The notes under the pieces are model-generated. The model was given only the letters and a program-made list of their open reading frames with translations. It was not told the DNA's origin and did not search any database. A program made the position numbers and the translations under genes. Below, piece after piece: positions 7,930 to 46,507 of a stretch of DNA of 50,316 bases (positions are counted from its first letter, which is position 1; every line of letters begins with the position of its first letter). The stretch is from Armatimonadota bacterium (GTDB lineage: Bacteria > Armatimonadota > UBA5829): contig JBDNDK010000001.1 in assembly GCA_046719185.1 (NCBI GenBank), forward strand, positions 1-50,316, written 5' to 3'.

Positions 7930-8980
7930 TCTGAATTTTCTCCACTTCTGCAATCAATTCATCTATCAATTCATTACTTTTAACTTTTTTCAGTGGTTCA
8001 CCATTAGAGAATAATATTCCATATTCATTAGTTCCAGATATTCCAACATCAGCCATCTGTGCTTCACCAGGACCGTTCACAACACAACCCATAACAGCAA
8101 CAGATATAGGCTTAATGATATTCATCTTTTCTAATCTATTTTTTACTTCATTAGAAATAGATTCAATGTCAATTGTAGTTCTCCCACAAGTAGGGCATGA
8201 AATTATAGTAAACTTTTTCTCTTTAAGACCTAATGAGTTTAGAATTTCGATTCCAATTTTTACCTCTTCAACTGGATCACCAGTTAATGATACTCTTATT
8301 GTATCACCAATTCCCTGAGCCAAAAGAGCTCCAATTCCAACTGAGCTTCTTATAGTACCTTCCCAAGGCAATCCGGATTCAGTTACTCCCAAATGCAATG
8401 GATATTCGCATCTATTTGCTACCATTTGATATGCATCTATCATCATAGGCACATCAAATGTTTTTAATGACAAAACTATATCAGTAAACCCAGCTTTTTC
8501 AAGTGTTTCTGCTTCATCAAGGGCAGAGTGTACTAATGCCTCAGCAGATGGTTTGCCATATTTTTTCTTATCAATCGAACCAGCATTCACGCCAATTCTT
8601 ATTGGGACATTATAATCTTTTGCTGCTTTTGCTACCTCTATGACCTTGTTTTCAGAACCAATATTGCCCGGATTTATTCTAAGTTTGTCAACACCTGATT
8701 TTAGGCTCTCTATTGCTAGTTTATAATCAAAATGAATATCTGCAACTAATGGAATTTTTATAGCTTTTTTAATTTTCTTTATTGCTTTTGCTGATTCCAT
8801 ATCTGGAACTGCAACTCTTGCTATATCACATCCTGTCATTTCAAAAGCTTTTAATTGAGATATAGTTGATTCAACATTTTGGGTTTTGGTATTTGTCATA
8901 GATTGCACTGAAATAGGTGAGTTTCCACCAATTCCAATATTTCCAGCAAATACTTTTTTTGTGATTCTTCTTTCAATCAT
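7913..8980 (-). CDS. ispG: 4-hydroxy-3-methylbut-2-en-1-yl diphosphate synthase
   Basis: 355 aa. GGNSPISVQSMTNT..., and a C-terminal CPTCGRT...MGCVVNGPGE Fe-S motif. Its ATG directly abuts the rseP stop. Confidence 0.95.
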   Translation of the reverse strand: MIERRITKKVFAGNIGIGGNSPISVQSMTNTKTQNVESTISQLKAFEMTGCDIARVAVPDMESAKAIKKIKKAIKIPLVADIHFDYKLAIESLKSGVDKLRINPGNIGSENKVIEVAKAAKDYNVPIRIGVNAGSIDKKKYGKPSAEALVHSALDEAETLEKAGFTDIVLSLKTFDVPMMIDAYQMVANRCEYPLHLGVTESGLPWEGTIRSSVGIGALLAQGIGDTIRVSLTGDPVEEVKIGIEILNSLGLKEKKFTIISCPTCGRTTIDIESISNEVKNRLEKMNIIKPISVAVMGCVVNGPGEAQMADVGISGTNEYGILFSNGEPLKKVKSNELIDELIAEVEKIQIDKKS

Positions 8981-10567
8981 TTATTGTGGAATATTGCCTC
9001 CAATCAGCTTTGATATATCTGAAGATATCACCAAGAATAAAATTATAGCTAATATAAAGAACCCAGTTGTTTGCCATATTTGCATTTGCCTTTGAGTCAA
9101 TTTTTTCTTTCTAATAGCTTCAAGACCAATCAGCACTAAATGGCCACCATCAACAATAGGAATTGGAAGCAAGTTTATAAATGCTAAGCTCAAACTCAAC
9201 CCACCCATTGTAAGAAATACATAATATGGACCGATAGCAACAGCAGAAGAAGTGATTTTTGCAATCATTATAGGACCGCCGACTTCTTCTTTTATCTTTT
9301 TGCTTGTTAACACTTCCACAATCATTCCTGCAAGCCTTATAGTAGAGCTTATAGCTTGTTTTATAGATTCAACAAAGCCTGTCTTTACTAGTTTTGGCTG
9401 TGGTTGAAATCCCAACAATCCATAGGCAACAAAAACACCCATTTCAATATTAGAATTATAAGGCACTTCTAAAGTTACCTTTTCATCACCATTTCTTTCT
9501 ACAACTACTTTGTAGGCTTTATTATCATCTTTATTCTTGACAACATCTAATAAATCATCAGCATTATTTATCTTTATATCATCAATACTAACTAGAATGT
9601 CATATTCTCTGAATGGTATAGTTTCAGATGAATATTTTGTTTGTCTTTTATCTCCAATATCTGATGTATAGCCTTGTGGGAAATGCCATTTTACTCCACC
9701 AAATCTAACCCAAGCAATTTCAGGCTTTACATCATATCTAATAACTTTATTTTCGGTATTTACTCTTCTTTCAACTTCAATATATGTTTCAGTTGTACCT
9801 ATTGCTTCAATTTGGCTAATCATATCATTACCAGATTTAATTTCAATACCATTTATTGAAAGCAAAATATCATTTTCCTTCAAGCCAATTTTGCCGGCAG
9901 TAGATTCTGGGCTAACAGCACCCAAAACAGCTTTATTGTTTTCATTAAAAGCCCAAGCAGCTCCCAGATATTGCACCATCCATCTTGGAGTGCCTTCTTT
10001 TTTTAATATTTTGCCTTTTCTTTCTATTTCGAGTTCTAGTTTTTCACCAGGTTTTTTGTGTATTAAGTTTATTAGGTCATCACCAGTAGAGACCTCAATA
10101 CCATTTATTTTTAATATAGTGTCTCCTGATCTTAACCCAATCCTATGAGCTTCTGTTTGTGGATTTACAAATCCAACCCTATTCATCATTTCTGTTCCGT
10201 CAGGGAATCCCCAATATAAACCAACAAATATAAATACGGCTGCACCAAATAGGAAGCTAAACAATGGACCTGCAAAGATAGTTAATGCTCTCTTTCCTCT
10301 TGATTGTGCTTGAAAACCATCAGGAAGATGCTCTTCGTCAGGTTCCATACCAATAATTTTTACAAATCCTCCTAAAGGTATTAAATGAACAGTGAACTCA
10401 GTCTCATTTTTCTTATAATATCTAAAGAGTTTAGGACCAAATCCAATTGCAAATTCTTCAACTTTCATTCCAGATAGTTTTGCAAAAATATAATGACCAA
10501 ATTCATGGGCAACTACCAAAAATGAAAAAATAAAAATTAGTGCTGCTGCAGTTTGTAATATTTCCAA
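8981..10567 (-). CDS. rseP: RIP site-2 metalloprotease (M50) with PDZ domains
   Basis: 528 aa. HEFGHY zinc motif in TM1, PDZ-like repeats in the middle, and a C-terminal NLLPIPIVDGGH motif. TTG start with AGGAGA 8 nt upstream. Confidence 0.9.
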   Translation of the reverse strand: MEILQTAAALIFIFSFLVVAHEFGHYIFAKLSGMKVEEFAIGFGPKLFRYYKKNETEFTVHLIPLGGFVKIIGMEPDEEHLPDGFQAQSRGKRALTIFAGPLFSFLFGAAVFIFVGLYWGFPDGTEMMNRVGFVNPQTEAHRIGLRSGDTILKINGIEVSTGDDLINLIHKKPGEKLELEIERKGKILKKEGTPRWMVQYLGAAWAFNENNKAVLGAVSPESTAGKIGLKENDILLSINGIEIKSGNDMISQIEAIGTTETYIEVERRVNTENKVIRYDVKPEIAWVRFGGVKWHFPQGYTSDIGDKRQTKYSSETIPFREYDILVSIDDIKINNADDLLDVVKNKDDNKAYKVVVERNGDEKVTLEVPYNSNIEMGVFVAYGLLGFQPQPKLVKTGFVESIKQAISSTIRLAGMIVEVLTSKKIKEEVGGPIMIAKITSSAVAIGPYYVFLTMGGLSLSLAFINLLPIPIVDGGHLVLIGLEAIRKKKLTQRQMQIWQTTGFFILAIILFLVISSDISKLIGGNIPQ

Positions 10568-19004: not shown

Positions 19005-21764
19005 TTATCTCCAGCAGCTGAGTCTTTGAGGTTGTTGCTTTTGTGTTATAAATAGAGATTTGCTTCTGGCATGCAAAAGATGTTTTCTGCCTTCTCTTTG
19101 TCTTGTGTAGATTAGTTCACATGGTCCAATGTGTTTGTTCCATGCTTTGCAAAACATTTCTGCCTGGTTTTTCTTTTCTCCAACTAAAGAAGGCACAGGG
19201 AAATAGTCGTCATCTGATATCTTTTTACTTTTATCTTTTCTAACTAATAGATATCTTTGATTTGAGATTGGTTCGAATAATTCTTCAAGGCAATCTATAA
19301 AAAGTGATCTTTCATAGGATGTGCCTCCCAAAAGCTCACATCTTATATTGCCTTCATTTTCTTTTTCTGTTATTACTTTTATACTGTTATCTTTTTTGAT
19401 TAAATTGAGTTCTAATAATACATCTAACAAAGTATAGGCAATTTCTTTTAGGCTGGATTCAAGCTTTATATGTTTGTATGCTCTAATAGCTGGTTTTATC
19501 ATAAAGGGTGTAAAAACTATTGCTGGAGCAAATGAAATCAATGCCAAATTTAGGCTTGCTGTAGTTTCTAGAATACTCATCATTGAAACTCCAGAAAATA
19601 TAGCTCCACCAATCCCTGCAATTATCAATTGCTTTAATATTGGTTTGTATGCACCTTTGAAAGCAAAATTTCTAGGAAGATGTGTTTTTCTTACTAAAAT
19701 TCCTTCTATCATTTTGTGCTCAGTTCCAGATTTTAGCACATCCATCCATTTTGTATATAAACCTTTTCTATCAACTGATTTTTCAAACATTAAATTATTA
19801 ATTGTTTCTATTTCTTCATTCTTAAATGGAGGGTTTGATATATTCAGTCTTGCAAAGCCATTTTCTATTGAATCATTTTTAAATGATAATCCTACAAATG
19901 CATTAAATCTTCTGACTACTGATTCATAGTCATTGTAAAATGAAATACTTTTATTTTTATCAACACATATCAAATGCCAGACATTAGCAGTTTTCTGATG
20001 TTGACTTTGGCATATTCTAATTGCTCTGCCTCTCATTTGATTGGATAAAACAAAAGAACCAACATTACTTGCAAGAACTAAGCTATTAATACAAGGTGCA
20101 TCCCAACCTTCACCAAGTAAAGATTTTGTGCCTACTATTACATTTACATCACCAGATAAAAACAACTCAGTGATAATACAAACAAGTTTTTGTCTATTAG
20201 AATCATTTATGGATATTTCAGTATATCTTCCTTCATTATCCATATTTTGTATAACTGATTCATTAGATTTCAAATTGTATTTATTGCATATTTCTTTGTA
20301 CTTAGGAATTGCTGTTTGAGGAATTACAACCAAACTTCCTGTCAGTATTGCCAAATTGATATTACTTAAATCACACTCAGCTTCTGAGATACTTCCCAAA
20401 AGATTATATTCATTAATTTCTTTTCTTATCATATCAAAAATAGGTGCTACACCAAGTTTTTTTGGTGTGTTAGCATCATATTTTGTATTCATCTCAGCTT
20501 TTCTAATGTAATCTGTCAAAATTACCATTCTGATATCAGACCCAAGATGATTTAATTCACTTTTTAATATCCTAATTATGCTGTCAAACTTGCTTGCACT
20601 GCTGGTCATTATTTTTGATATGATTTTATTGTTTTTCAGCACTATCTGTTTTTGCTCAACAGCACCAATGCTTTTTAATTGTTCTTCAATAGCTTTAATT
20701 GTTTCTTTATACTCAGAGAAATTATCATAGTCTTTATATATGCAGTTTGATAACAGAATCTCAAGCCATTCCAAATCCAGTGGAGGTATATCTTTATTTT
20801 CAATTCCAAGTATATCTACAAGATGAATAGGCACATTTATATCACTTGCATTTATAAATATAATCATACTGCTGAAATATGCTGGGTTAGATAATATATC
20901 TTCTATATGGTTTTCAGCATCTTTTATCCATATGTGTTCAGATACCGCACTACAGAATGCTCTATTCCAAACAATAGAATCAAAGAAATCAGATACTCTA
21001 TCTCTAAACTCACTTAATATTATATTTTCTTCATCTGTAGGCATACTAAGACAGACATAATCCTGATGTGGGCATAAATTGCCTTCTTTTACCATCTCCG
21101 GAACACTCACTTCAATATCCACTGGTCCACATAGCTCTTTATATCTTTCCCATTCATTTTGGGATACATCATAGGGTGGGGTAGCTGTAAGTGCAATAAT
21201 AGTTGGGTTTCCAAGGTCTGTTCTTAATTGTTCTAGTGTTTGCCACCATGCAGATTTTAGGTGGTGTGCTTCATCTACAACTAAAACTTCAATTCCAATT
21301 TCTTTAAGTGCTTTACTTATATCAACAATTTCAGATGATTCACTCTTTTTATTACCATTTTCATTATCACTATATGTTTCTTCTTCAAGTTCATCATACA
21401 AGGTTTCATTATCAACTAGACCTTTATATGCAGAAAAAACAGCCTGATATGTGGATACTGTAAGCAATTTGGGATTTTTTATATCTGTGCTTACCCATTC
21501 TGGCAAATCATAACCATCAGGCAAAAAATGTTTTTGGAATCTATCTATCCATTGATGTTTTATTGTTAGGGTAGGACCGAGGATTAGTGCTGGTTTTCCT
21601 ATCATTCTCACTAGTTCAAGACCAAGTATTGTTTTACCTGAACCTGGAGCTGCAACTATATGGAATCTATTATCTGATATATGCTTATCAAACTCCAGTA
21701 ATACTTGCTGCTGATATGGTCTCCAAGAAAGATTAAATGACACATAATCTGGAAAAACACTCAA
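19005..21764 (-). CDS. SF2 DEAH-box helicase (ResIII + Helicase_C type) with internal hydrophobic hairpin and unassigned C-terminal domain
   Basis: 919 aa. WRPYQQQ (Q-motif-like), Walker A AAPGSGKT (aa 38-45), DEAH (aa 164-167, nt ~21264-21275), TATPPYD (motif III), GEGWDAP and QMRGRAIR (motifs V and VI). TTG start with GAGGA 6 nt upstream. Confidence 0.85.
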   Translation of the reverse strand: MSVFPDYVSFNLSWRPYQQQVLLEFDKHISDNRFHIVAAPGSGKTILGLELVRMIGKPALILGPTLTIKHQWIDRFQKHFLPDGYDLPEWVSTDIKNPKLLTVSTYQAVFSAYKGLVDNETLYDELEEETYSDNENGNKKSESSEIVDISKALKEIGIEVLVVDEAHHLKSAWWQTLEQLRTDLGNPTIIALTATPPYDVSQNEWERYKELCGPVDIEVSVPEMVKEGNLCPHQDYVCLSMPTDEENIILSEFRDRVSDFFDSIVWNRAFCSAVSEHIWIKDAENHIEDILSNPAYFSSMIIFINASDINVPIHLVDILGIENKDIPPLDLEWLEILLSNCIYKDYDNFSEYKETIKAIEEQLKSIGAVEQKQIVLKNNKIISKIMTSSASKFDSIIRILKSELNHLGSDIRMVILTDYIRKAEMNTKYDANTPKKLGVAPIFDMIRKEINEYNLLGSISEAECDLSNINLAILTGSLVVIPQTAIPKYKEICNKYNLKSNESVIQNMDNEGRYTEISINDSNRQKLVCIITELFLSGDVNVIVGTKSLLGEGWDAPCINSLVLASNVGSFVLSNQMRGRAIRICQSQHQKTANVWHLICVDKNKSISFYNDYESVVRRFNAFVGLSFKNDSIENGFARLNISNPPFKNEEIETINNLMFEKSVDRKGLYTKWMDVLKSGTEHKMIEGILVRKTHLPRNFAFKGAYKPILKQLIIAGIGGAIFSGVSMMSILETTASLNLALISFAPAIVFTPFMIKPAIRAYKHIKLESSLKEIAYTLLDVLLELNLIKKDNSIKVITEKENEGNIRCELLGGTSYERSLFIDCLEELFEPISNQRYLLVRKDKSKKISDDDYFPVPSLVGEKKNQAEMFCKAWNKHIGPCELIYTRQREGRKHLLHARSKSLFITQKQQPQRLSCWR

Positions 21765-36543: not shown

Positions 36544-38712
36544 TTATTTTAACATTTTAAGGTCATATTTTTCTTCATATACAGTTAAATCATATTTTTT
36601 GCCATTAAAATGAATGCTTTTTATGGTGATTGAGTTCCAATCAATAGGTAGGCAAGGATTAACAAAAAGTTTGTTATTATTTGAAAGATATTCAAATTCT
36701 AATCCTGCAAACCCAAAAATTGTTGCTTTTATTGGTCCAGCAGCACCAGTGAGAAAAGTCATCACATCATTATATAGTGATGGTTTCTCATTGAAATTAT
36801 TAAATGGTCCTCTGAAATATGGCTTATAGCTTAGATGAAACTTTTCATAAGCATCAGCACAATTCCCTAATCTAGCCAATATCACAGAATGAGCAGATGG
36901 TGCCATAGCAGGTCCGCCTTTATGCACTTTTGGTGCATAATACTCATAAGTATTCTTATAAATTATCTTCATTTCCTCTTGTGTTTTTCCTGAAATTTTA
37001 TATTGTAATGGAAAAATCACAAGTTCAGTATCTGCTTGTTTTGCAGCAAGACCTTCATCATTATCATGAGCAACAAATCTTTGATTTTTTTCATCAAAGG
37101 GTATATACATTTTATTAGCAATCTCAACCCATCTTGGTGAAGGAGTCTGTCCGATAGTTTCAGCTGCTTTAGCTGCAATCAGCAAATTCAATTTTGCTAT
37201 CACATTTGTATATACAGAATTATTTACCATATCCCTGTTTTCATCTGGGGGCACAACTTCTAAAATTTCATATCTATCTTTATCTTCATTATATGTAACT
37301 TTGCTAACCCAATAATCTGCAGTTTCTTTAATGACATTATATCCTCTTTTTTTCAGCCATTCTTTATCTTTTGTGATTAAATAATACTGCCATTGGGCAA
37401 GGGCGATGTTTCCATTTATATGCCTTTCATGTCTATATACTAAGCCTTCTGGAGTTGCTTCAATTCCGGTAAATCCGCTTTCCCAAGCAAACTGTGCACC
37501 TTTGAATCCATCATTAACAGCATTTTGTCTTGCACCATCTAATGTTTTATATCTATATTCAACAATAGATTTTGCAAACTCCGGAAATTGCAACGCAATA
37601 GCATGAAATATCCACAAATCTGCATCCCAAAATATATGACCACTCCATCCATTGCTTGATAATCCTAGTGGTGGAATACTCCAATGCATATCCTCTCTAA
37701 CACTTTGAAGAATATAAAACATACAGCTGTTTATAGTCTGCTGATCTTTCTTCGGTCCATCTATTATAATTCTTCTTTCCCATATCTTATTCCATGCGGA
37801 AATGTGTTCTTCTTCTATATCTTCAATATTTATAGCAATTGCTTTTTCAAGCTCATTTTTTGCAGAAGAAACAGCAGTCTCTGAATTCATATCAACTGAA
37901 ATAGAAACTAAATATAATACTTTGAATCTTTTATTCTTTTCTGCTTTGATTGATATTCTGTCAATATAATCTTTTGATTTATCAGTATTATTAGATTGCA
38001 AGATGCTATCAGAATGGAAGAATGTGTATATAGCTAGATATAAATTACTTTCTTTTGTTTTCAACAGATGGCAAATATCATTTTCTATAACATCAAAGTA
38101 TGCAAATTTGCTTTTACCTTGCTCATCTAAATAGCTAGGCACATAAAAAGTAATATTACCATCAAAATTTGGCACAAAATCAAAAGTGATAAGAGCTATA
38201 TTTTTTCTTGCTCTTGAAACTATTATTTTTATTTCACCCTGTAAGGTTTGATTTTGATATCTATATGTGCATTTAGTTGTCAAAATGCCTTTTTTAATAT
38301 CAAGAGTTTGAGTATAGAATGATTTAGCATCAATTTGAAACAAAGCATCATCAGAATTAACATTATTGGTGATTCTTATATCACTCCAAGTGGGAATTGG
38401 AACTAGTGTTTCTTCATTATATAAACCTGCAACAAAGCACTGTAGTGGTTCATTCTTTTCAAAACCTAACCCAGAACCTTTTATTTGAGTAGATATATAT
38501 CCATTTGCCAGATATGTTCCATAATCAAAATCTGGTTTATCGGATAGTAATTGCCAAGGGTCATCAGTTGCTGGTCCTCTTTGCTCTGGAGTATTTGATT
38601 TAGTGTTGATATCTTGTTCTTTATCTTTTAGAGCGGATAAATAAACTATAACACTAGCAAATACGGACAGAAAAATTATTAACAAGACAATTTTATAAAA
38701 TCGATTGCTCAT
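36544..38712 (-). CDS. GH65-like (alpha/alpha)6 glycoside hydrolase/phosphorylase with N-terminal membrane anchor
   Basis: 722 aa. Anchor IVLLIIFLSVFASVIVYL. The catalytic-domain blocks GHIFWDADLWIF, YRYKTLDGARQNA, GAQFAWESGFTGIEATPEG and ERHINGNIALAQWQY resemble GH65. Confidence 0.7.
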   Translation of the reverse strand: MSNRFYKIVLLIIFLSVFASVIVYLSALKDKEQDINTKSNTPEQRGPATDDPWQLLSDKPDFDYGTYLANGYISTQIKGSGLGFEKNEPLQCFVAGLYNEETLVPIPTWSDIRITNNVNSDDALFQIDAKSFYTQTLDIKKGILTTKCTYRYQNQTLQGEIKIIVSRARKNIALITFDFVPNFDGNITFYVPSYLDEQGKSKFAYFDVIENDICHLLKTKESNLYLAIYTFFHSDSILQSNNTDKSKDYIDRISIKAEKNKRFKVLYLVSISVDMNSETAVSSAKNELEKAIAINIEDIEEEHISAWNKIWERRIIIDGPKKDQQTINSCMFYILQSVREDMHWSIPPLGLSSNGWSGHIFWDADLWIFHAIALQFPEFAKSIVEYRYKTLDGARQNAVNDGFKGAQFAWESGFTGIEATPEGLVYRHERHINGNIALAQWQYYLITKDKEWLKKRGYNVIKETADYWVSKVTYNEDKDRYEILEVVPPDENRDMVNNSVYTNVIAKLNLLIAAKAAETIGQTPSPRWVEIANKMYIPFDEKNQRFVAHDNDEGLAAKQADTELVIFPLQYKISGKTQEEMKIIYKNTYEYYAPKVHKGGPAMAPSAHSVILARLGNCADAYEKFHLSYKPYFRGPFNNFNEKPSLYNDVMTFLTGAAGPIKATIFGFAGLEFEYLSNNNKLFVNPCLPIDWNSITIKSIHFNGKKYDLTVYEEKYDLKMLK

Positions 38713-39451
38713 TATTTTCTTTCCTAGCTACAAAAAACACTCTATCAGATCTTCTGTTAGGTTTTTTGAATTTATAAGCATGGAATATATGAAGCACTTT
38801 AAATTTAGTTTCTCTTAGTATGTTTGATAACTCTTCAATTGTATAACCTTTTTGAACATGAACTTCTTTGAATTGCACCAATTCACCGTATTCATTTTCA
38901 GTTTCAAAAGTCATATTCACTCTGCAAATTCTAGTTGCATTATCCCACTCACTTCTCCATACATATCTAGGCAAATGATCTCTTGATAAATTTGCTTGAT
39001 CGAAGAAATGATGCTGAAGAGCATATATAGTATTTACATCAAAAATGAAAATTCCATTATCCACTAAATGCTGAGAGACTCTTTTTATTCCTTCTCTTAG
39101 TTTATTGATATCAGTAACATAATTTAGACTGTCAAATAAACTAATGGCAAGATCAAATTTTCTATCAATATTTAATTCTGCAACATCACTAACAAAATAT
39201 TCTGCCTTATGATCTTTATTTAAGGCAACAGCTATCATTTCTTTACTTATATCAAAACCGGTAACCTCATAACCTTTCTCTGCAAGCAATTCAGATACAT
39301 TACCAGTCCCGCAAGCAACATCAAGAATTGTTTTTGGTTCATAATCAACCATCAGCAATAGGTCTTCTAAATATTTAACCCAAAAACTATAAGGAACTCC
39401 GCTCATAAGTTTGTCATAATGAGGAGCTACAAGATTAAATTGAGATTCCAT
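38693..39451 (-). CDS. class I SAM-dependent methyltransferase (small-molecule type)
   Basis: 252 aa. Motif I ILDVACGTGNVS, post-I E.TGFDIS, and motif II/III LAISLFDSLNY...GIFIFD. Its 3' end overlaps the GH65 start by 20 nt. Confidence 0.8.
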   Translation of the reverse strand: MESQFNLVAPHYDKLMSGVPYSFWVKYLEDLLLMVDYEPKTILDVACGTGNVSELLAEKGYEVTGFDISKEMIAVALNKDHKAEYFVSDVAELNIDRKFDLAISLFDSLNYVTDINKLREGIKRVSQHLVDNGIFIFDVNTIYALQHHFFDQANLSRDHLPRYVWRSEWDNATRICRVNMTFETENEYGELVQFKEVHVQKGYTIEELSNILRETKFKVLHIFHAYKFKKPNRRSDRVFFVARKENNEQSIL

Positions 39452-39528: not shown

Positions 39529-40113
39529 TTACTTTTCCCATTCTATGTGACCATTGATATTATATTTCTCATATGTTTTGAGAATGTCTTCACAGAATGA
39601 CTTTAGTTCTTGATTGTTTTCTTTTTTTGCTAGTTCATAAAGTCTTATAAACATTTTTTTGCTTGTTTCTGTCTGATTTAGATTTTTCTTTATGAAATTG
39701 TGTTGGGCACATAATGTTTGTCCATTTTCTATTTCAGCTTTTCCACCAAGCGATCTTGGTTTTATATGGTCAATATGTAGCTCTACACCATCAATTTTGC
39801 CTTTGCCACAAATTACACACTTGTAATTATCTCTTTTTAGTATTTGTCTTTTTTGTTCGTCGCTGAAATCTTCAAGATGGTTTGTTATTTCCATATTAGG
39901 ATCATATTTATAGATCCCTTTGGCTACTTTTATAAGTTTTCCATTTTCATGTAGTTTTCTTATGCTTCTCCAAGTATCTCTGGGTTTTCTTCCGTATAAT
40001 TTTAAATAATGTTCTTCAACCCAGTCTACAACGGGTCCATGTTGTATATCTTGATTGGGATGTTTTGTAAAATATTCTATAACCAAATCCTCTATACTCT
40101 TTTTCTTTTCCAT
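39529..40113 (-). CDS. HNH (beta-beta-alpha-Me) endonuclease, putative type II restriction enzyme
   Basis: 194 aa. CVICGKG...LHIDHIKPRSLGGKAEIENGQTLCAQHN follows a ~90-aa N-terminal domain. It starts 2 nt after the DNA MTase stop. Confidence 0.8.
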   Translation of the reverse strand: MEKKKSIEDLVIEYFTKHPNQDIQHGPVVDWVEEHYLKLYGRKPRDTWRSIRKLHENGKLIKVAKGIYKYDPNMEITNHLEDFSDEQKRQILKRDNYKCVICGKGKIDGVELHIDHIKPRSLGGKAEIENGQTLCAQHNFIKKNLNQTETSKKMFIRLYELAKKENNQELKSFCEDILKTYEKYNINGHIEWEK

Positions 40114-40115
40114 AT

Positions 40116-40922
40116 TTAAAAGTTTATCCTTTGTTGATAAAAATGAGCTTCAGTTTTTATTCTTTTTATAGCAAGATTACAGTATTCAGAATCAATATCA
40201 ATTCCTATTGCTTTTCTGTTTGATAATGAAGCTGCAATAAGAGTTGTTCCACTGCCCATAAAGGGGTCCATTATAACATCATCTACAAAACTAAATAATT
40301 TTATACATCTCATTGGAAGATTTATAGGGAATGGTGCAGGATGTCCTATTCTTTTCTTACTTTCACCAGAAAATGTCCACAAACCATTTGTCCATTCCAT
40401 AAACTCACTTTTTGTTATATCTGATTTCAGGCTACCAGAAGTTTTTTTCCAGTTATCTTTATATAGCACAACAATAGTTTCAACTGGAGCAATAACATAA
40501 GGTGCACTAGCAGAAAGCCATGAACCCCAAGCCGTTCTTCTTGATATATTACCTTCATTCCAGATAATTGTTGAGTGATATTTAAATCCAACTGATTTTG
40601 CAATGGAAGTAATATCCGCACAAACAGATTGCTGTCCTCCCTTGTTTTTGTCAAGAGGTATATTTAGGCAAAATCTACCGTCATTTTTTAACATTTTATA
40701 GCATTGTTTTAGCCATAATGTTGTGAATTCAAGATAATCTTCATAACACTCAGCATCATCATGTGAATTATAATGAATATCCACATTATAAGGTGGTGAA
40801 GTAATGATTAAATCAATAGATTCATCATTAATATCTTTAATTGTAAGAATATCATCATTATAGATTAATATATCCTTATCATTGAAAACTAAATTCACAT
40901 TTTGTCTCTCTTCCAAGAGCAT
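40116..40922 (-). CDS. beta-class N4-cytosine/N6-adenine DNA methyltransferase
   Basis: 268 aa. Motif IV SPPY (aa 42-45, DLIITSPPYNV) precedes motif I DPFMGSGTTLIAA near the C-terminus, which is the N6_N4_Mtase beta permutation. GGAG RBS 8 nt upstream. Confidence 0.85.
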   Translation of the reverse strand: MLLEERQNVNLVFNDKDILIYNDDILTIKDINDESIDLIITSPPYNVDIHYNSHDDAECYEDYLEFTTLWLKQCYKMLKNDGRFCLNIPLDKNKGGQQSVCADITSIAKSVGFKYHSTIIWNEGNISRRTAWGSWLSASAPYVIAPVETIVVLYKDNWKKTSGSLKSDITKSEFMEWTNGLWTFSGESKKRIGHPAPFPINLPMRCIKLFSFVDDVIMDPFMGSGTTLIAASLSNRKAIGIDIDSEYCNLAIKRIKTEAHFYQQRINF

Positions 40923-41033
40923 ATGTATTACTCCAAAAAATATTATTCAATTGAATTATATCAAATTTACATTGTGATGATTAGACATTATATAAATATA
41001 GCAAAAAAACCTTCCGTACAATGCTTTATGTTA

Positions 41034-41042
41034 TGCTATAAT
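41034..41042 (+). promoter_or_regulatory. extended -10 element (TGCTATAAT) upstream of the SbcD-like gene
   Basis: TGCTATAAT lies 70 nt upstream of ATG 41113. The -35 is weak (TTCCGT, 19-nt spacer). Pattern only. Confidence 0.3.
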
Positions 41043-41112
41043 ATGCAAGGTTACAATAATATCAATAATTAATATAAATTATACCATTTGAAAACTAGAA
41101 TTGTGAGGGTGT

Positions 41113-42375
41113 ATGCTGAAACTATTGTGTGCTGGAGATTTGCATTTAGGAAGAAGATCAAGCAGAACTCAAAATGATGATGTATCAATTTCTTCATCAC
41201 ACACATGGCTTGAGTGTGTGGAATATGCAATAAAAAATGAAGTTTCTGCTGTTTTGCTTGCAGGTGACATTATTGATGAAAGCAATAAATTTTTTGAGGC
41301 ATTTGGTCCGCTTGAGAAAGGCATAGAAACTCTTAGAAAATATAATATCCCAGTGATTGCTGTTTCGGGGAATCATGATTGGGATTCAATTAAAAGCTTT
41401 GTCAATGGTTTAAATTTAGACAATTTTCATATTCTTGGAATAGATGGTAAATGGGATAATTATAAGATATCCAAAGATGGAAATATCATTGTTAGTGTTT
41501 GGGGTAAAAGCTTCATTTCAAAATATCAAGACAACTCACCAATTCAGAACCTACCTAGTATTCAGCCAGAAGGTGTTCCTATTATAGGTTTGCTTCACAC
41601 AGATGTTGGAGCAAAAAACAGTGTTTATGCAGGTGTTGATAGAAATGAATTACAAAATAAAGGTTTTAATCTCTGGGTAACTGGTCATATTCATCAGCCA
41701 AGTTTTGAAGATAACATATTAATTTGCGGTTCACTTCATGCACTTGACCCTAGTGAAGAAGGCAAAAGAGGCTGTTGGATAATAGAAATTGATGAAAATA
41801 ATAATATAACAAGTAAGCATATACCTCTAAGTTCAGTTGAATATCACAATGTAAATATAGATTTGTCACAAGCTCAAGGTATAGATAATATTAGAAGCAT
41901 AATAGCTAGGGAAATAAGAGACTATACAACAAAAATCATACAAAAAAATATTAATCTCAAATATGCAGTTTATAGAATATCATTAGTATCCAGAACACCT
42001 GCATATAAAGATGTTAATCTTGCTATAAAAGAGTTAGATAAAGAGCCTATTAGTATTCACATATCAGATTGCACCGTTGTGATAGATAAAATATACAACA
42101 ACACAAAGCCATTATTAAATCTTGATGAAATATCTCAGGGTGTGGGTGTAACAGCATTTCTTGCAAAATTGATATTAGATATTGAATCAGGTATCAATTC
42201 AGAAGAGATGTTATCGCTTTTATCAAAGACTAATGATAATGTTGCATCATTGATTTCTCAAAGAAATGCAGAAGATTTTGATTTTAGGCAATTAGATCAA
42301 GATGATTTGAAAGAAATAATATGTGCAAAAGGTTATGAATTATTAGATTCACTGATAATGCAGGTGAAAAAATGA
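41113..42375 (+). CDS. SbcD/Mre11-like metallophosphoesterase
   Basis: 420 aa. Calcineurin-like motifs GDLHLG, GDIID, SGNHD, LLHTD and GHIHQ, followed by a ~170-aa C-terminal extension. GAGGG RBS. Confidence 0.85.
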   Translation: MLKLLCAGDLHLGRRSSRTQNDDVSISSSHTWLECVEYAIKNEVSAVLLAGDIIDESNKFFEAFGPLEKGIETLRKYNIPVIAVSGNHDWDSIKSFVNGLNLDNFHILGIDGKWDNYKISKDGNIIVSVWGKSFISKYQDNSPIQNLPSIQPEGVPIIGLLHTDVGAKNSVYAGVDRNELQNKGFNLWVTGHIHQPSFEDNILICGSLHALDPSEEGKRGCWIIEIDENNNITSKHIPLSSVEYHNVNIDLSQAQGIDNIRSIIAREIRDYTTKIIQKNINLKYAVYRISLVSRTPAYKDVNLAIKELDKEPISIHISDCTVVIDKIYNNTKPLLNLDEISQGVGVTAFLAKLILDIESGINSEEMLSLLSKTNDNVASLISQRNAEDFDFRQLDQDDLKEIICAKGYELLDSLIMQVKK

Positions 42376-45167
42376 GCAAAAAATGTTTGTATTTTAAAAA
42401 TATAAAAATTATAAATATGCCAGGTTTTGAAAATAACAATGGATTTGATATAGATGGTTTAGTTGATGGGATAAATATAATCTATGGACCAAATGCATCA
42501 GGTAAAACTACAACTGCAAAATCATTAGTATCAATTCTTTGGCCAAAACTATTGAATAACAAAGATTCAATGCTATCTGCTGAAATGATACTTGATAATA
42601 AAAAAATAAAAACAGACTTAAAATCTGGAAAAGTTGATTGTTATATTGACGGTGAAAAATCAAATTTGCCTCTGTATCCATCAGAACAGTATTCTTCAAG
42701 ATATTGGCTTGACTTAAATACACTTATGACTGGAAATAATAATGAATTTGCAAAAGCAATTGCAAATGAATCTGCCGGTGGTTATGACATAAAAGCTGCA
42801 ACTAAAAGTCTTGGATATACATTAAAGCCATCTAATCCAAGAGGTTTAAAAACCGAGCTTAGTAATATAAAAGCAAAGATAAAAAAAATATCAAATCAAG
42901 AAAAGGCAAAAATTAACTTATTAAATGAACTTGAAGCTCTTAAATTGGCTGTATCAAGTGAAGATGAAGATAAAAAAAGGGTTAGACAATTTGAGAAAAT
43001 TAAAGAATACAAATACAGAAAAAAACAACTTGATATAGTTGAAATAGAGCTCAAATCATATCCTGATATATGTGAAAAATTAGTTGGTAATGAAGACAAA
43101 CAGCTTGAGGAGCTAAATCAGAAAATTGATGATCATAATAAGTTTATTGAGAGGGCAAAATTAGAAATTGAGAGAAATTCAAATGAAAAATCAATGCTTT
43201 CAATTCAAAAAAGTCCAGAAATAACTGAAATTGAAACACTTAGAAACTTAAATAATTCATTAATTGATATTAAAAGTAAAATTGAATTACAGCATAGAGA
43301 AATATCAAATTATCAAAATGAAAAAAACAACGCTAAAAAGAGGCTTCCTCTCAAAATTGATCCTGAAAAACTTGATACATTTAATTCAGACAGTACAGAA
43401 ATCTTAGGCAGGTTTATAAGAAGAGATGAGAAAATTAGATCTAAGTTTGATGCATATAATCAGATAGAAAAGTGGATTGGAACCGAGAAATCATCACAGG
43501 ATTTATCAAAGATAAGAAGATGTATAGATTTATTAATTGATTGGTTTTCTGAAAATATTATTTCTGCATCAGGTTACAATAAAGTAAATTTAATTTATGC
43601 ACTACTTGCTGGATTATTTTGGGGACTTGGTATATTAGCAGGTTATTTGATTAACCCAATTTATTTTATAACACTTCTATTTTCTATAGTTTTTCTTATT
43701 CTGATTAAAAAACCTCAGCCAGCATCAACCAGAAGAGTTGATATACAAAATGAGTATGAAAATCTAAATGTATCTCTTCCGGAAAGATGGGAAAAAGATA
43801 GTGTAAAAACCCATTTTTTTGATATTCAAGCAAAATATTCAGATCTTCAATTTATTAATGCAAAAGCAGACTATTTGAAAAATATATCAAATGAATTAAA
43901 CTGTCTTAACAATGAAATAAATCAGCTAAACATCGATAAAAATGAAATTTTAGATAAAATAGGAATAATGCCGGAGATGAGTGATGATGAATACTCCTTA
44001 TTTGTTATGTTGACAAATATCATCAAATGGCAAGAAGCAAATGACAAACTTGATTTTGCAGAAAATAAGTTGAGAGATCTCATAATAAAACAAAAAAATA
44101 TTACTACACAAATTAATGAGATACTTATGAAATACAATCAAAATGAAGTAGGTTCTTCTGATGACGCTGGATCTGCTATAGAAAGATTAGCCTCAGAAAA
44201 AATTAGATTTGATGAAGTTACTAGTCAGATAAATAGACTTAATGAAGATATAAAAAGAGAGGAAAAATCTCTTAATGATTCTGTTCAAAAGAAAAAGAAA
44301 TTATTTGAAAATATTGGCATTGCATTAAATGATGAAAGATCATTATATGATGCTCTAAATCAATATAAAAATTATCAGCAAACAAAGAAAAACTATAATA
44401 ATATTCTAGCAGTATATAATCAATCACAGAATGAAATTGAAGATTTTAAAGAGCTATCAGATTTATCTGATGAGGAAATTGAGAGCCACATAGAAAGATA
44501 TGAACGCAGAATTGATAGCCATAAAGAGAAACATCAAAAAATTGGTGAGCTGATAAACACTATAAATAGTGCAAAAATTAGTAAAGAATTGGAACAAGCA
44601 TTAGATATAGAAATTAATGCAAAAGACAAACTTACAAAGCTGCTTGATAATGATATAGAGTCGGTTGTGGGACAGACACTAGCAGATTTTGTTGAGTTAA
44701 ACAGCAGAAGTAAAGACCTTCCAAAGGTATTTGAAAATGCAAACTGTATCTTTCAAAAGATAACTGATAATAGGTATGAGTTAGAAATAGATTACACTAA
44801 TTCTGAATTAGATTTTAAGGCTCTGGATAAAGAAGTAGATAAATTTAAAAACATTAATGAATTATCAACTGGCACAAGGGTTCAGTTGTTACTTTCTGTT
44901 AGACTTGGTTTTATAGAAGAGCAAGAAACAGAATTATCTTTGCCATTGATATTAGATGAAGTTTTAGCAGTTAGTGATGAAAAAAGAGCAAAAGAAATTA
45001 TGGATTTTATCTTAGATGTTGCTAAAAGAAATAGGCAGATAATATATTTCACAACTCAATTAGAAGAAGCAAAGAAATGGAGTGAATATCTTGAATCTGT
45101 TGGATATAACAATTATTCCATAAAAGATATGAATAATATTAAGCGATATCAATCTTTATTTGTTTGA
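42372..45167 (+). CDS. SbcC/Rad50-like ABC ATPase with long coiled-coil and central two-helix membrane hairpin
   Basis: 931 aa. Its ATG overlaps the upstream stop (ATGA). Walker A GPNASGKT (aa 39-46), signature-like ELSTGTR, and Walker B LPLILDE in the last ~100 aa. The hydrophobic hairpin is at aa ~405-447 (nt 43584-43712). There is no CxxC. Confidence 0.8.
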   Translation: MSKKCLYFKNIKIINMPGFENNNGFDIDGLVDGINIIYGPNASGKTTTAKSLVSILWPKLLNNKDSMLSAEMILDNKKIKTDLKSGKVDCYIDGEKSNLPLYPSEQYSSRYWLDLNTLMTGNNNEFAKAIANESAGGYDIKAATKSLGYTLKPSNPRGLKTELSNIKAKIKKISNQEKAKINLLNELEALKLAVSSEDEDKKRVRQFEKIKEYKYRKKQLDIVEIELKSYPDICEKLVGNEDKQLEELNQKIDDHNKFIERAKLEIERNSNEKSMLSIQKSPEITEIETLRNLNNSLIDIKSKIELQHREISNYQNEKNNAKKRLPLKIDPEKLDTFNSDSTEILGRFIRRDEKIRSKFDAYNQIEKWIGTEKSSQDLSKIRRCIDLLIDWFSENIISASGYNKVNLIYALLAGLFWGLGILAGYLINPIYFITLLFSIVFLILIKKPQPASTRRVDIQNEYENLNVSLPERWEKDSVKTHFFDIQAKYSDLQFINAKADYLKNISNELNCLNNEINQLNIDKNEILDKIGIMPEMSDDEYSLFVMLTNIIKWQEANDKLDFAENKLRDLIIKQKNITTQINEILMKYNQNEVGSSDDAGSAIERLASEKIRFDEVTSQINRLNEDIKREEKSLNDSVQKKKKLFENIGIALNDERSLYDALNQYKNYQQTKKNYNNILAVYNQSQNEIEDFKELSDLSDEEIESHIERYERRIDSHKEKHQKIGELINTINSAKISKELEQALDIEINAKDKLTKLLDNDIESVVGQTLADFVELNSRSKDLPKVFENANCIFQKITDNRYELEIDYTNSELDFKALDKEVDKFKNINELSTGTRVQLLLSVRLGFIEEQETELSLPLILDEVLAVSDEKRAKEIMDFILDVAKRNRQIIYFTTQLEEAKKWSEYLESVGYNNYSIKDMNNIKRYQSLFV

Positions 45168-45253
45168 GTTTTGTAATAAATATTCTCACAAAGAATAACA
45201 AATATGCTATCATCATACAAATAATTTGACTGTAAAAGATGGGAGTTATACTG

Positions 45254-46507
45254 ATGGCTAATATTACTGATATGCAAAAAGATTCTATAAGATGTAGAGT
45301 CTTAAAAGCTGTAGATGAGGTGAAGATTACTGATATTCACACTCATATATACAATCAAAGTTTTGGTGATATTTTATTATGGGGAATAGATGAACTTATA
45401 ACATATCACTATCTTGTAGCTGAAACTTTAAGATGGGGAGTTATATCACCAGAGGATTATTGGAAACTCAACAAAAAAGAGCAAGCAGATATTATTTGGA
45501 AAACATTATTTGTTGATCATATACCTTTTAGTGAAGCTTGCAGAGGTGTTCTTACTGTTTTAGACAAACTTGGTCTTGATACTTCTGCTAGAAATCTTAA
45601 TGAATATAGAAAGTTTTTCCAATCACAGAACTTAGAGAAATATGTTGATACAGTATTTGAAACAGCTGGTGTAGAAAGCGTGGTCATGACAAATGATCCA
45701 TTTGATGATCTTGAAAGACCATCGTGGCTAAATAATGCTCCAAGAGATGAAAGGTTTCATGCTGCATTAAGAATAGATCCTATTTTAATCAATTGGGCAA
45801 CTGCGGCTTCAAAGATTAAAGATTGGGGATATGATGTAACACCTGAACTTACAGAAAAAACCTGCCTTGAAATCTGCAGATTTTTAGGTGATTGGGTGGA
45901 TAAGATGAAAGCACTGTATTTAGCTGTTTCTCTAACCCCAGATTTTAGATTTCCTGATGATTCTGAGCAAACACTTATAATAGAAAAATGCATCTTGCCT
46001 GTCTGCAGAGAAAAAGGCATCCCATTTGCTCTTATGATTGGTGTTAAAAGACTTATTAACCCAAGATTAAAGCTTGCTGGTGATGGTGTTGGGGCAGGGG
46101 ATGTAAATTCTGTTGAAAATCTATGCTCAAATTATCCTGATAACAAATTTATGGTAACTATGCTTTCAAGAGAAAATCAGCATGAGCTAACAGTAGCAGC
46201 TAGAAAGTTTTCAAACTTATTTTTGTTTGGTTGCTGGTGGTTCTTAAACAATCCATGCTTTATTGAAGAAATGACAAATATGAGATTTGATTTACTTGGT
46301 CCTAATGTGGTTCCTCAGCATTCTGATGCTAGAGTATTGGATCAGCTTATTTACAAATGGTGGCATTCAAGAGATATAATTGGTGAGGTGTTATCAGAAA
46401 AAATTATCAATTTATCTGCAACTGGTTGGATTCCTACTGATGAAGAAATTAAGAGAGATGTTAAAGCTTTGTTTGGTGGTAATTTCTGGGATTATTTGAA
46501 GAGATAA
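45254..46507 (+). CDS. uronate isomerase, Bh0493-type (amidohydrolase superfamily)
   Basis: ITDIHTHIY..FGDILLWGIDELITYHYLVAE, VVMTNDPFDD, RFHAALRIDP, MLSRENQHEL, FGCWWFLNNP and PQHSDARVLDQLIYKW match my recollection of B. halodurans Bh0493 closely. The ATG at 45254 has GGGAG 8 nt upstream. The track start at 45239 is 5 codons longer. Confidence 0.8.
   Translation: MANITDMQKDSIRCRVLKAVDEVKITDIHTHIYNQSFGDILLWGIDELITYHYLVAETLRWGVISPEDYWKLNKKEQADIIWKTLFVDHIPFSEACRGVLTVLDKLGLDTSARNLNEYRKFFQSQNLEKYVDTVFETAGVESVVMTNDPFDDLERPSWLNNAPRDERFHAALRIDPILINWATAASKIKDWGYDVTPELTEKTCLEICRFLGDWVDKMKALYLAVSLTPDFRFPDDSEQTLIIEKCILPVCREKGIPFALMIGVKRLINPRLKLAGDGVGAGDVNSVENLCSNYPDNKFMVTMLSRENQHELTVAARKFSNLFLFGCWWFLNNPCFIEEMTNMRFDLLGPNVVPQHSDARVLDQLIYKWWHSRDIIGEVLSEKIINLSATGWIPTDEEIKRDVKALFGGNFWDYLKR

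Follow-up and report, generated by a model that had tools for sequence, protein, structure and literature searches.

How does a Rad50-like ATPase close the far end of its coiled-coil arm when it has no zinc hook? The question is raised by two genes on the forward strand of the window, the 50,316-nucleotide stretch of an Armatimonadota metagenome-assembled genome (MAG; assembly GCA_046719185.1, contig JBDNDK010000001.1) that was analyzed here: gene A (41113-42375, 420 aa), an open reading frame (ORF) encoding a nuclease, and gene B (42372-45167, 931 aa), encoding an ATPase. The arm of canonical Rad50 and SbcC closes and dimerizes via a CxxC zinc hook, whereas the B protein carries at its midpoint a hydrophobic hairpin. 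Our analysis indicates that the locus is probably a short, divergent representative of the YhaO/YhaN family (SbcF/SbcE, COG4717), whose members are two-gene Mre11-Rad50-like machines for the processing of DNA ends, and that it likely serves in repair or end processing at the membrane. In such a machine the apex of the coiled coil is a predicted membrane hairpin in place of the zinc hook, which is supported at the level of prediction by the hydropathy and the conservation described below.

An initial annotation of this DNA had described the two genes as an SbcD-like nuclease coupled to an SbcC/Rad50-like ATPase, and the motifs, the profiles, the AlphaFold2 (AF2) models and the Foldseek searches agree with this description. 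It had also pointed out that the YhaO/YhaN pair has a similar two-gene layout; the relationship goes further, as there is full-length homology that includes the hairpin.

Relation of the two genes to YhaO and YhaN

Gene B and 26 homologs form a set of 27 clade sequences. The hhalign comparison of this set with 15 Firmicute YhaN proteins yielded a probability of 100% and an E-value of 2.2e-44 over 884 columns, end to end, and placed the hydrophobic segments of the clade and of Firmicute YhaN on each other. The search seeded with a Firmicute-type relative retrieved hundreds of AAA_27 (PF13514) proteins named YhaN; several clade members are called 'uncharacterized protein YhaN' by JGI, and PF13514 matches are precomputed for three members of the clade (P0002, P0009 and P0011), while P0225 from Bacillus sp. 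V-88 scores 95.5 bits. The P0225 locus consists of an ATP-binding cassette (ABC) transporter pair, a Metallophos protein (418 aa), YhaN (986 aa), a YhaM-type protein with an OB fold and an HD domain, YhaL and PrsA, and this gene order matches that of the B. subtilis yhaQ-P-O-N-M-L-prsA region. In B. subtilis, yhaO is located upstream and yhaM downstream of yhaN, and SbcE interacts with YhaO (SbcF) (PMC2811018). Gene A, in turn, matches YhaO encoded in a Bacillus yhaQ-P-O-N-M-L-prsA locus (BLASTP E-value 3e-22).

The window locus has in common with B. subtilis SbcF/SbcE the order of the genes (the nuclease, then the ATPase) and their 4-nt overlap, the absence of CxxC from the apex, the two-helix hydrophobic segment at the midpoint and the lack of a C-terminal extension; the sizes of the nucleases, 420 aa in the window and 418 aa in Bacillus YhaO, are also similar. 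The overlap is formed by an ATGA sequence in which the start of gene B lies within the stop of gene A, and the two genes are translationally coupled; here the ORFs, their coordinates and the overlap given in the initial annotation all check out. The locus differs in its host, an Armatimonadota MAG rather than a Firmicute, in the absence of the neighboring yhaM exoribonuclease gene, in the Walker A motif (GPNASGKT vs. GxNEAGKST in Firmicute YhaN) and in the replacement of the switch histidine by glutamine. Moreover, the identity between the ATPases is very low, so that pairwise BLAST of the window B protein with Firmicute YhaN finds only the C-terminal head (E-value 2e-11).

With the 'GPNASGK' clade (proteins of about 1155 aa from Bacteroidota, Planctomycetota, Chloroflexota, Haloarchaea and others) the B protein shares the Walker A motif, the signature motif, the glutamine in the H-loop, the hairpin, the flanking L..W and P..W motifs and the upstream nuclease gene. 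It differs in lacking the C-terminal extension of about 230 residues that is present in most members. The only other short forms seen were P0005 and the ATPase of locus L049, and the extension is also absent from Firmicute YhaN. The extension, found in P0002, P0003, P0015 and others as well as among the ATPases of loci L002-L081, is conserved, with motifs such as HLWYL, WGQL, GRGRPVDR and SGAVS; it has no Pfam match and, according to tblastn, is not encoded separately in the window.

Gene A, annotated by NCBI as 'DNA repair exonuclease', encodes a metallophosphoesterase nuclease of the YhaO/SbcF type with the Mre11/SbcD fold, as judged by the Pfam, BLASTP and AF2/Foldseek results. The initial annotation had reported the full Mre11/calcineurin motif set, and all five motifs were located: GDLHLG (motif I, from aa 8, 41134-41151, with the metal ligands D9 and H11), GDIID (motif II, from aa 51, 41263-41277, with D52), SGNHD (motif III, from aa 85, 41365-41379, with N87 and H88), LLHTD (motif IV, from aa 160, 41590-41604, with H162) and GHIHQ (motif V, from aa 191, 41683-41697, with H192 and H194). 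These eight residues are all invariant in the alignment of 39 sequences of A homologs. The protein matches the Pfam family Metallophos (PF00149) with an E-value of 1.8e-14, and its closest solved relatives by sequence are the Mre11/SbcD proteins of T. maritima and P. furiosus (about 3e-5). Its AF2 model has a predicted local distance difference test score (pLDDT) of 93 and a predicted template modeling score of 0.88. All top 50 PDB matches found with this model by Foldseek are Mre11/SbcD chains, and up to 416 columns are aligned with T. maritima Mre11 from the Rad50 complex. Hence the protein is predicted to comprise a nuclease domain, a capping domain and a C-terminal helical region (helices at aa 346-358, 364-383 and 396-419; 42148-42369), the helices of the latter being a putative ATPase-binding helix-loop-helix.

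Gene B, listed by NCBI as 'hypothetical protein SNJ70_00190', is assigned by hhalign, the profile and AF2/Foldseek to the short form of YhaN/SbcE-type Rad50-like ABC ATPases. The Walker A motif, the signature-like motif and the Walker B motif that the initial annotation had listed are all in place: GPNASGKT at aa 39-46 (42486-42509), ELSTGTR at aa 830-836 (44859-44879) and LPLILDE at aa 857-863 (44940-44960), the last followed by the D-loop residues S868 and D869. Invariant across the clade set are G39, P40, N41, A42, G44 and K45 of Walker A, S832, R836 and Q838 of the signature region, and P858, D862, E863 and D869 of Walker B and the D-loop. The position of the H-loop, or switch histidine, is occupied by Q896 (45057-45059), which aligns with the invariant histidine of the Firmicute YhaN 'TCH' motif; glutamine ('TAQ') is found in 24 of the 27 clade members, and this suggests clade-wide alteration of the kinetics of ATP hydrolysis. 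The positions of the motifs, the AF2 model, the Foldseek matches and the profile agree in that the protein is an ABC head whose two halves are separated by a long antiparallel helical arm. The AF2 model, calculated from the 27-sequence alignment (mean pLDDT 82), contains the ABC head and helical arms at aa 157-393 and 451-780; it matches condensin, Smc5/6, Rad50, MukB, JetC and LmuB in Foldseek, and the clade profile matches Rad50 ATPase structures with an E-value of 1e-12.

The hydrophobic hairpin at the apex of the arm

The sole hydrophobic stretch of the B protein comprises 43 residues at its midpoint (aa 405-447; 43584-43712), that is, two helices of about 20 residues connected by a short N-P turn and predicted to be transmembrane. 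The Kyte-Doolittle mean over 19 residues exceeds 1.6 only for segments centered at aa 413-439, where it peaks at 2.47, the best value elsewhere being 0.78, and the only two charged residues in the stretch are the terminal KK. The Hessa-type insertion energies of the two helices are about +0.1 and -0.75 kcal/mol compared with at least +10 kcal/mol elsewhere in the protein. In the AF2 model the apex is formed by helices at aa 402-427 and 429-445. There is no CxxC anywhere in the window protein, its six cysteines being all isolated. Thus the sequence, the hydropathy and the AF2 model confirm the initial observation of two hydrophobic helices near the midpoint of a protein without CxxC.

Shuffling of the I/L-rich B sequence often yields one hydrophobic segment (the mean maximum is 1.57), and therefore the statistical weight of the hairpin rests on its conservation. 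Each of the 27 clade sequences has just one strongly hydrophobic segment, which falls at aa 383-501, halfway from Walker A to the signature, and none of the 27 contains CxxC at any position. The same holds for Firmicute YhaN/SbcE: a single midpoint hydrophobic segment is present in 15 of 15 proteins and a midpoint CxxC in none. Within the hairpin only hydrophobicity is conserved, whereas its flanks are conserved at the level of residues: the motif L388..W391 (43533-43544), some 15 residues ahead of the first hydrophobic helix, with both columns invariant; the basic stretch behind helix 2; and, after this stretch, the motif P470..W473 (43779-43790), whose columns are nearly invariant. Given the full-length homology to YhaO/YhaN, which includes the hairpin, the predicted hairpin architecture is a trait of the family and not a novelty of the window locus.

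The central region of SbcE was first described by Krishnamurthy et al. in 2009 as a unique domain with a hydrophobic first half and a conserved proline, insoluble and lacking CxxC; these authors do not call it transmembrane (PMC2811018). In the literature searched the transmembrane nature of the apex hairpin is not stated, although it may have been published elsewhere. The substitution of a hairpin for the zinc hook is real, widespread and little discussed in the searched literature, but it extends beyond this locus and was first described in 2009.

One protein departs from this pattern. P0264 of Desulfobacula sp. (1168 aa, 'YhaN family protein', AAA_27) has neither a hydrophobic stretch nor CxxC, so some YhaN-like proteins must close the apex in another way.

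The main rival explanation of the hairpin, which we consider unlikely, is that it forms a soluble dimerization module, the hairpins of two protomers packing as a four-helix bundle that replaces the zinc hook. The zinc hook serves apex dimerization, so that some replacement is needed, and P0264 implies that anchoring is not obligatory for relatives. The insolubility of the isolated SbcE central domain in E. coli would fit an exposed hydrophobic interface (PMC2811018). On the other hand, both helices have about 20 uncharged residues and lie above the Kyte-Doolittle threshold of 1.6; basic residues come after helix 2 in almost every member, in keeping with the positive-inside pattern; and the conservation of hydrophobicity only is typical of segments facing lipid and unusual for a specific protein-protein interface. 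In addition, a study of the staphylococcal surfaceome gives the predicted location of YhaN as 'Membrane' (PMC7137321).

Several observations weigh against a membrane-anchored member of the YhaO/YhaN family, and the first two of them also speak for the soluble bundle. The confidence of the AF2 model is lowest at the hairpin (pLDDT 53-67). In B. subtilis, SbcE-YFP (yellow fluorescent protein) foci were seen 'on the nucleoids' and were highly mobile, crossing from one pole to the other within a minute (PMC2811018), which is at least as compatible with a freely diffusing assembly as with one integral to the membrane. Membrane insertion is predicted from hydropathy only, and the experimental data on the family are confined to Bacillus. 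As to the assignment itself, gene B is below every NCBIfam cut-off, its match to Pfam AAA_27 (PF13514; 17.6 bits, E-value 0.0031) is below the gathering score of 22, and it is only 19-27% identical to its best homologs (E-values down to 1e-103). Finally, with glutamine at the position of the switch histidine, ATP turnover in the clade may differ from that in Rad50 and SbcE.

Distribution, genomic context and the question of defense

The search with the clade profile among 1.84 billion cluster representatives identified 2,547 proteins at E-values of 1e-30 or lower; as the representatives are those of clusters at 50% identity, this count corresponds to at least 2,500 clusters. In a scan of one genome per species the family was found in Bacteroidota, Planctomycetota, Chloroflexota, Gemmatimonadota, Gammaproteobacteria, Myxococcota, Elusimicrobia, Chlamydiae, Lentisphaeria, Haloarchaea and Thermoplasmatales. 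Of the 71 loci with sufficient sequence upstream, 70 have a homolog of gene A as the immediate upstream neighbor on the same strand, and in most cases the two genes overlap by 4 nt. The greedy ORF caller performed poorly at high-GC loci, and presence and synteny were therefore called by tblastn and tblastx. All-against-all clustering of ORFs from 81 loci and the window revealed no third conserved partner gene. An apparent third conserved cluster ran antisense to the nuclease gene in high-GC genomes and was taken as an artifact of ORF calling.

Synteny around the pair is kept between two Planctomycetes and between two Brumimicrobium species, whereas haloarchaeal loci with ATPases of 74-84% identity have lost it, some haloarchaeal copies residing on plasmid-like elements. 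Hence the cassette is accessory; some lineages inherit it vertically, and in others it is mobile. A primase-polymerase (prim-pol) type gene and a TrbC-like gene adjoin the pair on haloarchaeal megaplasmids.

Three sets of loci illustrate particular surroundings. A block containing the pair, at about 1-13 kb of the analyzed loci, is common to plasmids of two genera, Natrinema (L084, NZ_CP100447.1) and Haloarcula (L085, NZ_CP010531.1); among its products are a protein of 1232 aa without any family match, one of 562 aa that carries an NrS-1-type prim-pol helix-bundle domain, and a small TrbC/VirB2-like protein. A 1509-aa STAND-like AAA_22 protein is encoded downstream. The Salinibaculum litoreum chromosome (L002, 7182-10000) has the only locus of the 71 that lacks the nuclease partner, in the place of which there is a 381-aa transposase-like ORF (8344-9489); a VirB4-like ATPase and a polytopic membrane protein are encoded just upstream, and these surroundings suggest an integrated element of the conjugative type. 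The ATPase from an Elusimicrobia MAG (L010) is 61% identical to those from Bacteroidales MAGs (L030 and L067), the two-gene cassette alone being shared, which points to recent horizontal transfer or to mis-binning of contigs.

In the window the operon is flanked by a 190-nt divergent intergenic region (40923-41112), A+T-rich with a GC content of 0.23, which is the presumed promoter region of the A-B operon. In the scan of 40800-45400 promoter-like signals were within the shuffled expectation and no terminator was found; both scans are uninformative in A+T-rich DNA. On the other side of this region, divergent from the operon, lies a type II restriction-modification (R-M) pair (39529-40922 and 38693-39451, reverse strand; Pfam and PADLOC), consisting of an N6/N4 methyltransferase (PF01555; PADLOC MTase_II, 7e-100) and a 194-aa HNH endonuclease and followed by a class I S-adenosylmethionine methyltransferase. 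Downstream, 72 nt 3' of gene B on the same strand, there is an ORF of 422 aa (45239-46507) that has no Pfam match, contains DIHTHIY, which resembles a metal-dependent hydrolase motif, and by tblastn is unrelated to the C-terminal extension of the long-form YhaN-like proteins. The wider window holds serA, proS, hisD and glycoside hydrolase genes; its sole other gene of possible restriction or defense flavor encodes a 918-aa ResIII/DEAD/SNF2-type helicase (19005-21764, reverse strand), about 20 kb away.

The initial annotation had proposed that the pair acts on incoming DNA in defense, citing an R-M system back to back with the operon and a visibly more A+T-rich block. In its full form this alternative states that A and B are an anti-phage or anti-plasmid system, in which a membrane-tethered nuclease destroys incoming linear DNA at the site of entry, perhaps together with the adjacent R-M system; we regard it as highly unlikely. 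The R-M genes do adjoin the operon, but such a neighbor does not recur in the 18 loci described below. The A+T richness is also real, the GC content of gene B being 0.277, but it is not a sign of foreign DNA: the GC content at third codon positions (GC3) is 0.195 for A, 0.176 for B, and 0.190 and 0.231 for the R-M genes, as compared with 0.196 +/- 0.025 for the other genes of the window. The deficit is in codon positions 1 and 2, and thus the low GC content of B reflects amino acid composition. By GC3, origin of the block as a foreign island is ruled out.

Rad50-like ATPases and their SMC (structural maintenance of chromosomes) relatives do occur in known defense systems. Lamassu LmuB, Wadjet JetC and PARIS AriA each combine an ABC head with a coiled coil and have weak profile or fold matches to B, but their partners are LmuA, JetD and AriB, respectively, rather than an Mre11-type nuclease, and there is no significant match to their models. 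The best PADLOC-DB 2.0 matches of gene B, AriA (2.2e-5) and JetC (3.4e-5), as well as that to LmuB, fall in generic ABC and coiled-coil regions, and gene A has no match in this database. We also examined the neighborhood of the pair in 18 low-GC loci, taking the closest four genes to either side (144 proteins), with neither a matched background nor system-level calls. The most frequent Pfam families among these neighbors were peptidases, extracytoplasmic function sigma factors, methyltransferases, ABC transporters and sensor kinases, mostly of housekeeping character; PADLOC matches were few, many of them coming from two helicases that each match many models, and the type II methyltransferase model was matched by two of the 144 proteins.

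The patchy phyletic spread, the haloarchaeal plasmid and conjugative-type elements and the unrelated flanks of close homologs favor a defense system, and a membrane location near the site of DNA entry would suit it. However, synteny is retained in Planctomycetes and Brumimicrobium, there is no third conserved gene, and the family is absent from the INPHARED phages and represented by one weak partial match in IMG/VR. Furthermore, the B. subtilis orthologue promotes transformation instead of restricting it: the mutants are sensitive to double-strand breaks, loss of SbcE makes transformation 20-fold lower, and SbcE and SbcF gather at the pole with the DNA-uptake machinery in a ComK-dependent manner (PMC2811018). 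These data speak for action of SbcEF on incoming DNA at the envelope, but in favor of recombination, the opposite of a barrier. Since the neighbor test is coarse, the defense role should be considered unsupported rather than refuted.

The last alternative, that A and B are a plain SbcCD orthologue with an overlooked hook, is scarcely credible: although SbcCD/Mre11-Rad50 are the closest solved structures to A and B, share with them the Mre11 fold with the full metal-ligand set and the split ABC head on an antiparallel helical arm, and lend the names SbcD or SbcC to homologs in some sources, the zinc hook is replaced by a hydrophobic hairpin in B and its 26 clade homologs, both proteins score far below all NCBIfam cut-offs for SbcC, SbcD, Mre11 and Rad50 (for A, 54 bits vs. 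500 for Mre11_Sulfo and 38 vs. 77.65 for TIGR00619), A is much closer to YhaO than to any solved SbcD or Mre11, and SbcCD and SbcEF exist side by side as separate systems in B. subtilis (PMC2811018). Canonical SbcCD identity was ruled out on the lack of CxxC and the failure to reach any curated cut-off.

A proposed membrane-anchored Mre11-Rad50-like machine

Taken as a YhaO/YhaN-type pair, the two proteins could work as follows. The A protein, whose metal ligands are all intact, would be a Mn-dependent nuclease of the Mre11/SbcD fold, and its C-terminal helices would probably grip the coiled coil of the ATPase at its base. In the B protein, a Rad50-like ATPase, the N- and C-terminal half-heads would be joined by the long antiparallel helical arm. 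The hairpin is most likely transmembrane, its two ends facing the cytoplasm and the short N-P turn lying on the outer side. The apex would thereby be anchored in the cytoplasmic membrane, and the hairpin would probably also provide the contact between two apices within the bilayer, taking over the part of the zinc hook. The head with a dimer of A would then hang about 30-35 nm into the cytoplasm, assuming about 240 arm residues of approximately 0.15 nm each. As in SbcCD, the heads, once engaged with each other by ATP, would capture DNA ends or hairpins and control the nuclease, the activity of which would be confined to DNA near the envelope. From the genetics of B. subtilis SbcEF we infer that the role is most likely recombinational repair or the processing of DNA ends at the membrane.

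A bolder version of this scheme, which we put forward as a distinctly unlikely speculation, is that YhaO/YhaN complexes in general are integral-membrane Mre11-Rad50 machines that dimerize by a transmembrane bundle of four helices instead of the zinc hook and act specifically on DNA ends passing through or contacting the envelope during transformation, conjugation or phage injection; in lineages other than Firmicutes, for example in the Armatimonadota genome studied here, they could bar incoming linear DNA alongside the R-M system next to them.

The window locus itself is ordinary, being a divergent member of a known but poorly characterized family, and the defense role proposed for it is without support. 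What it leads to is the family. Few bacterial SMC-like systems are as little understood as SbcEF, which the literature searched treats as a speciality of Firmicutes. Exactly where the zinc hook would be, the 'unique central domain' of SbcE consists of a conserved helix pair long enough to span a membrane, and the same architecture, along with the nuclease partner, is spread over many bacterial phyla and haloarchaea. In one large clade the switch histidine has been replaced by glutamine and an uncharacterized C-terminal domain has been added. If the membrane reading is true, a membrane-anchored Rad50 would change how the end-tethering and 'ring' models apply to this branch, and the anchor would provide a concrete handle on the gathering of SbcE at the DNA-uptake pole.

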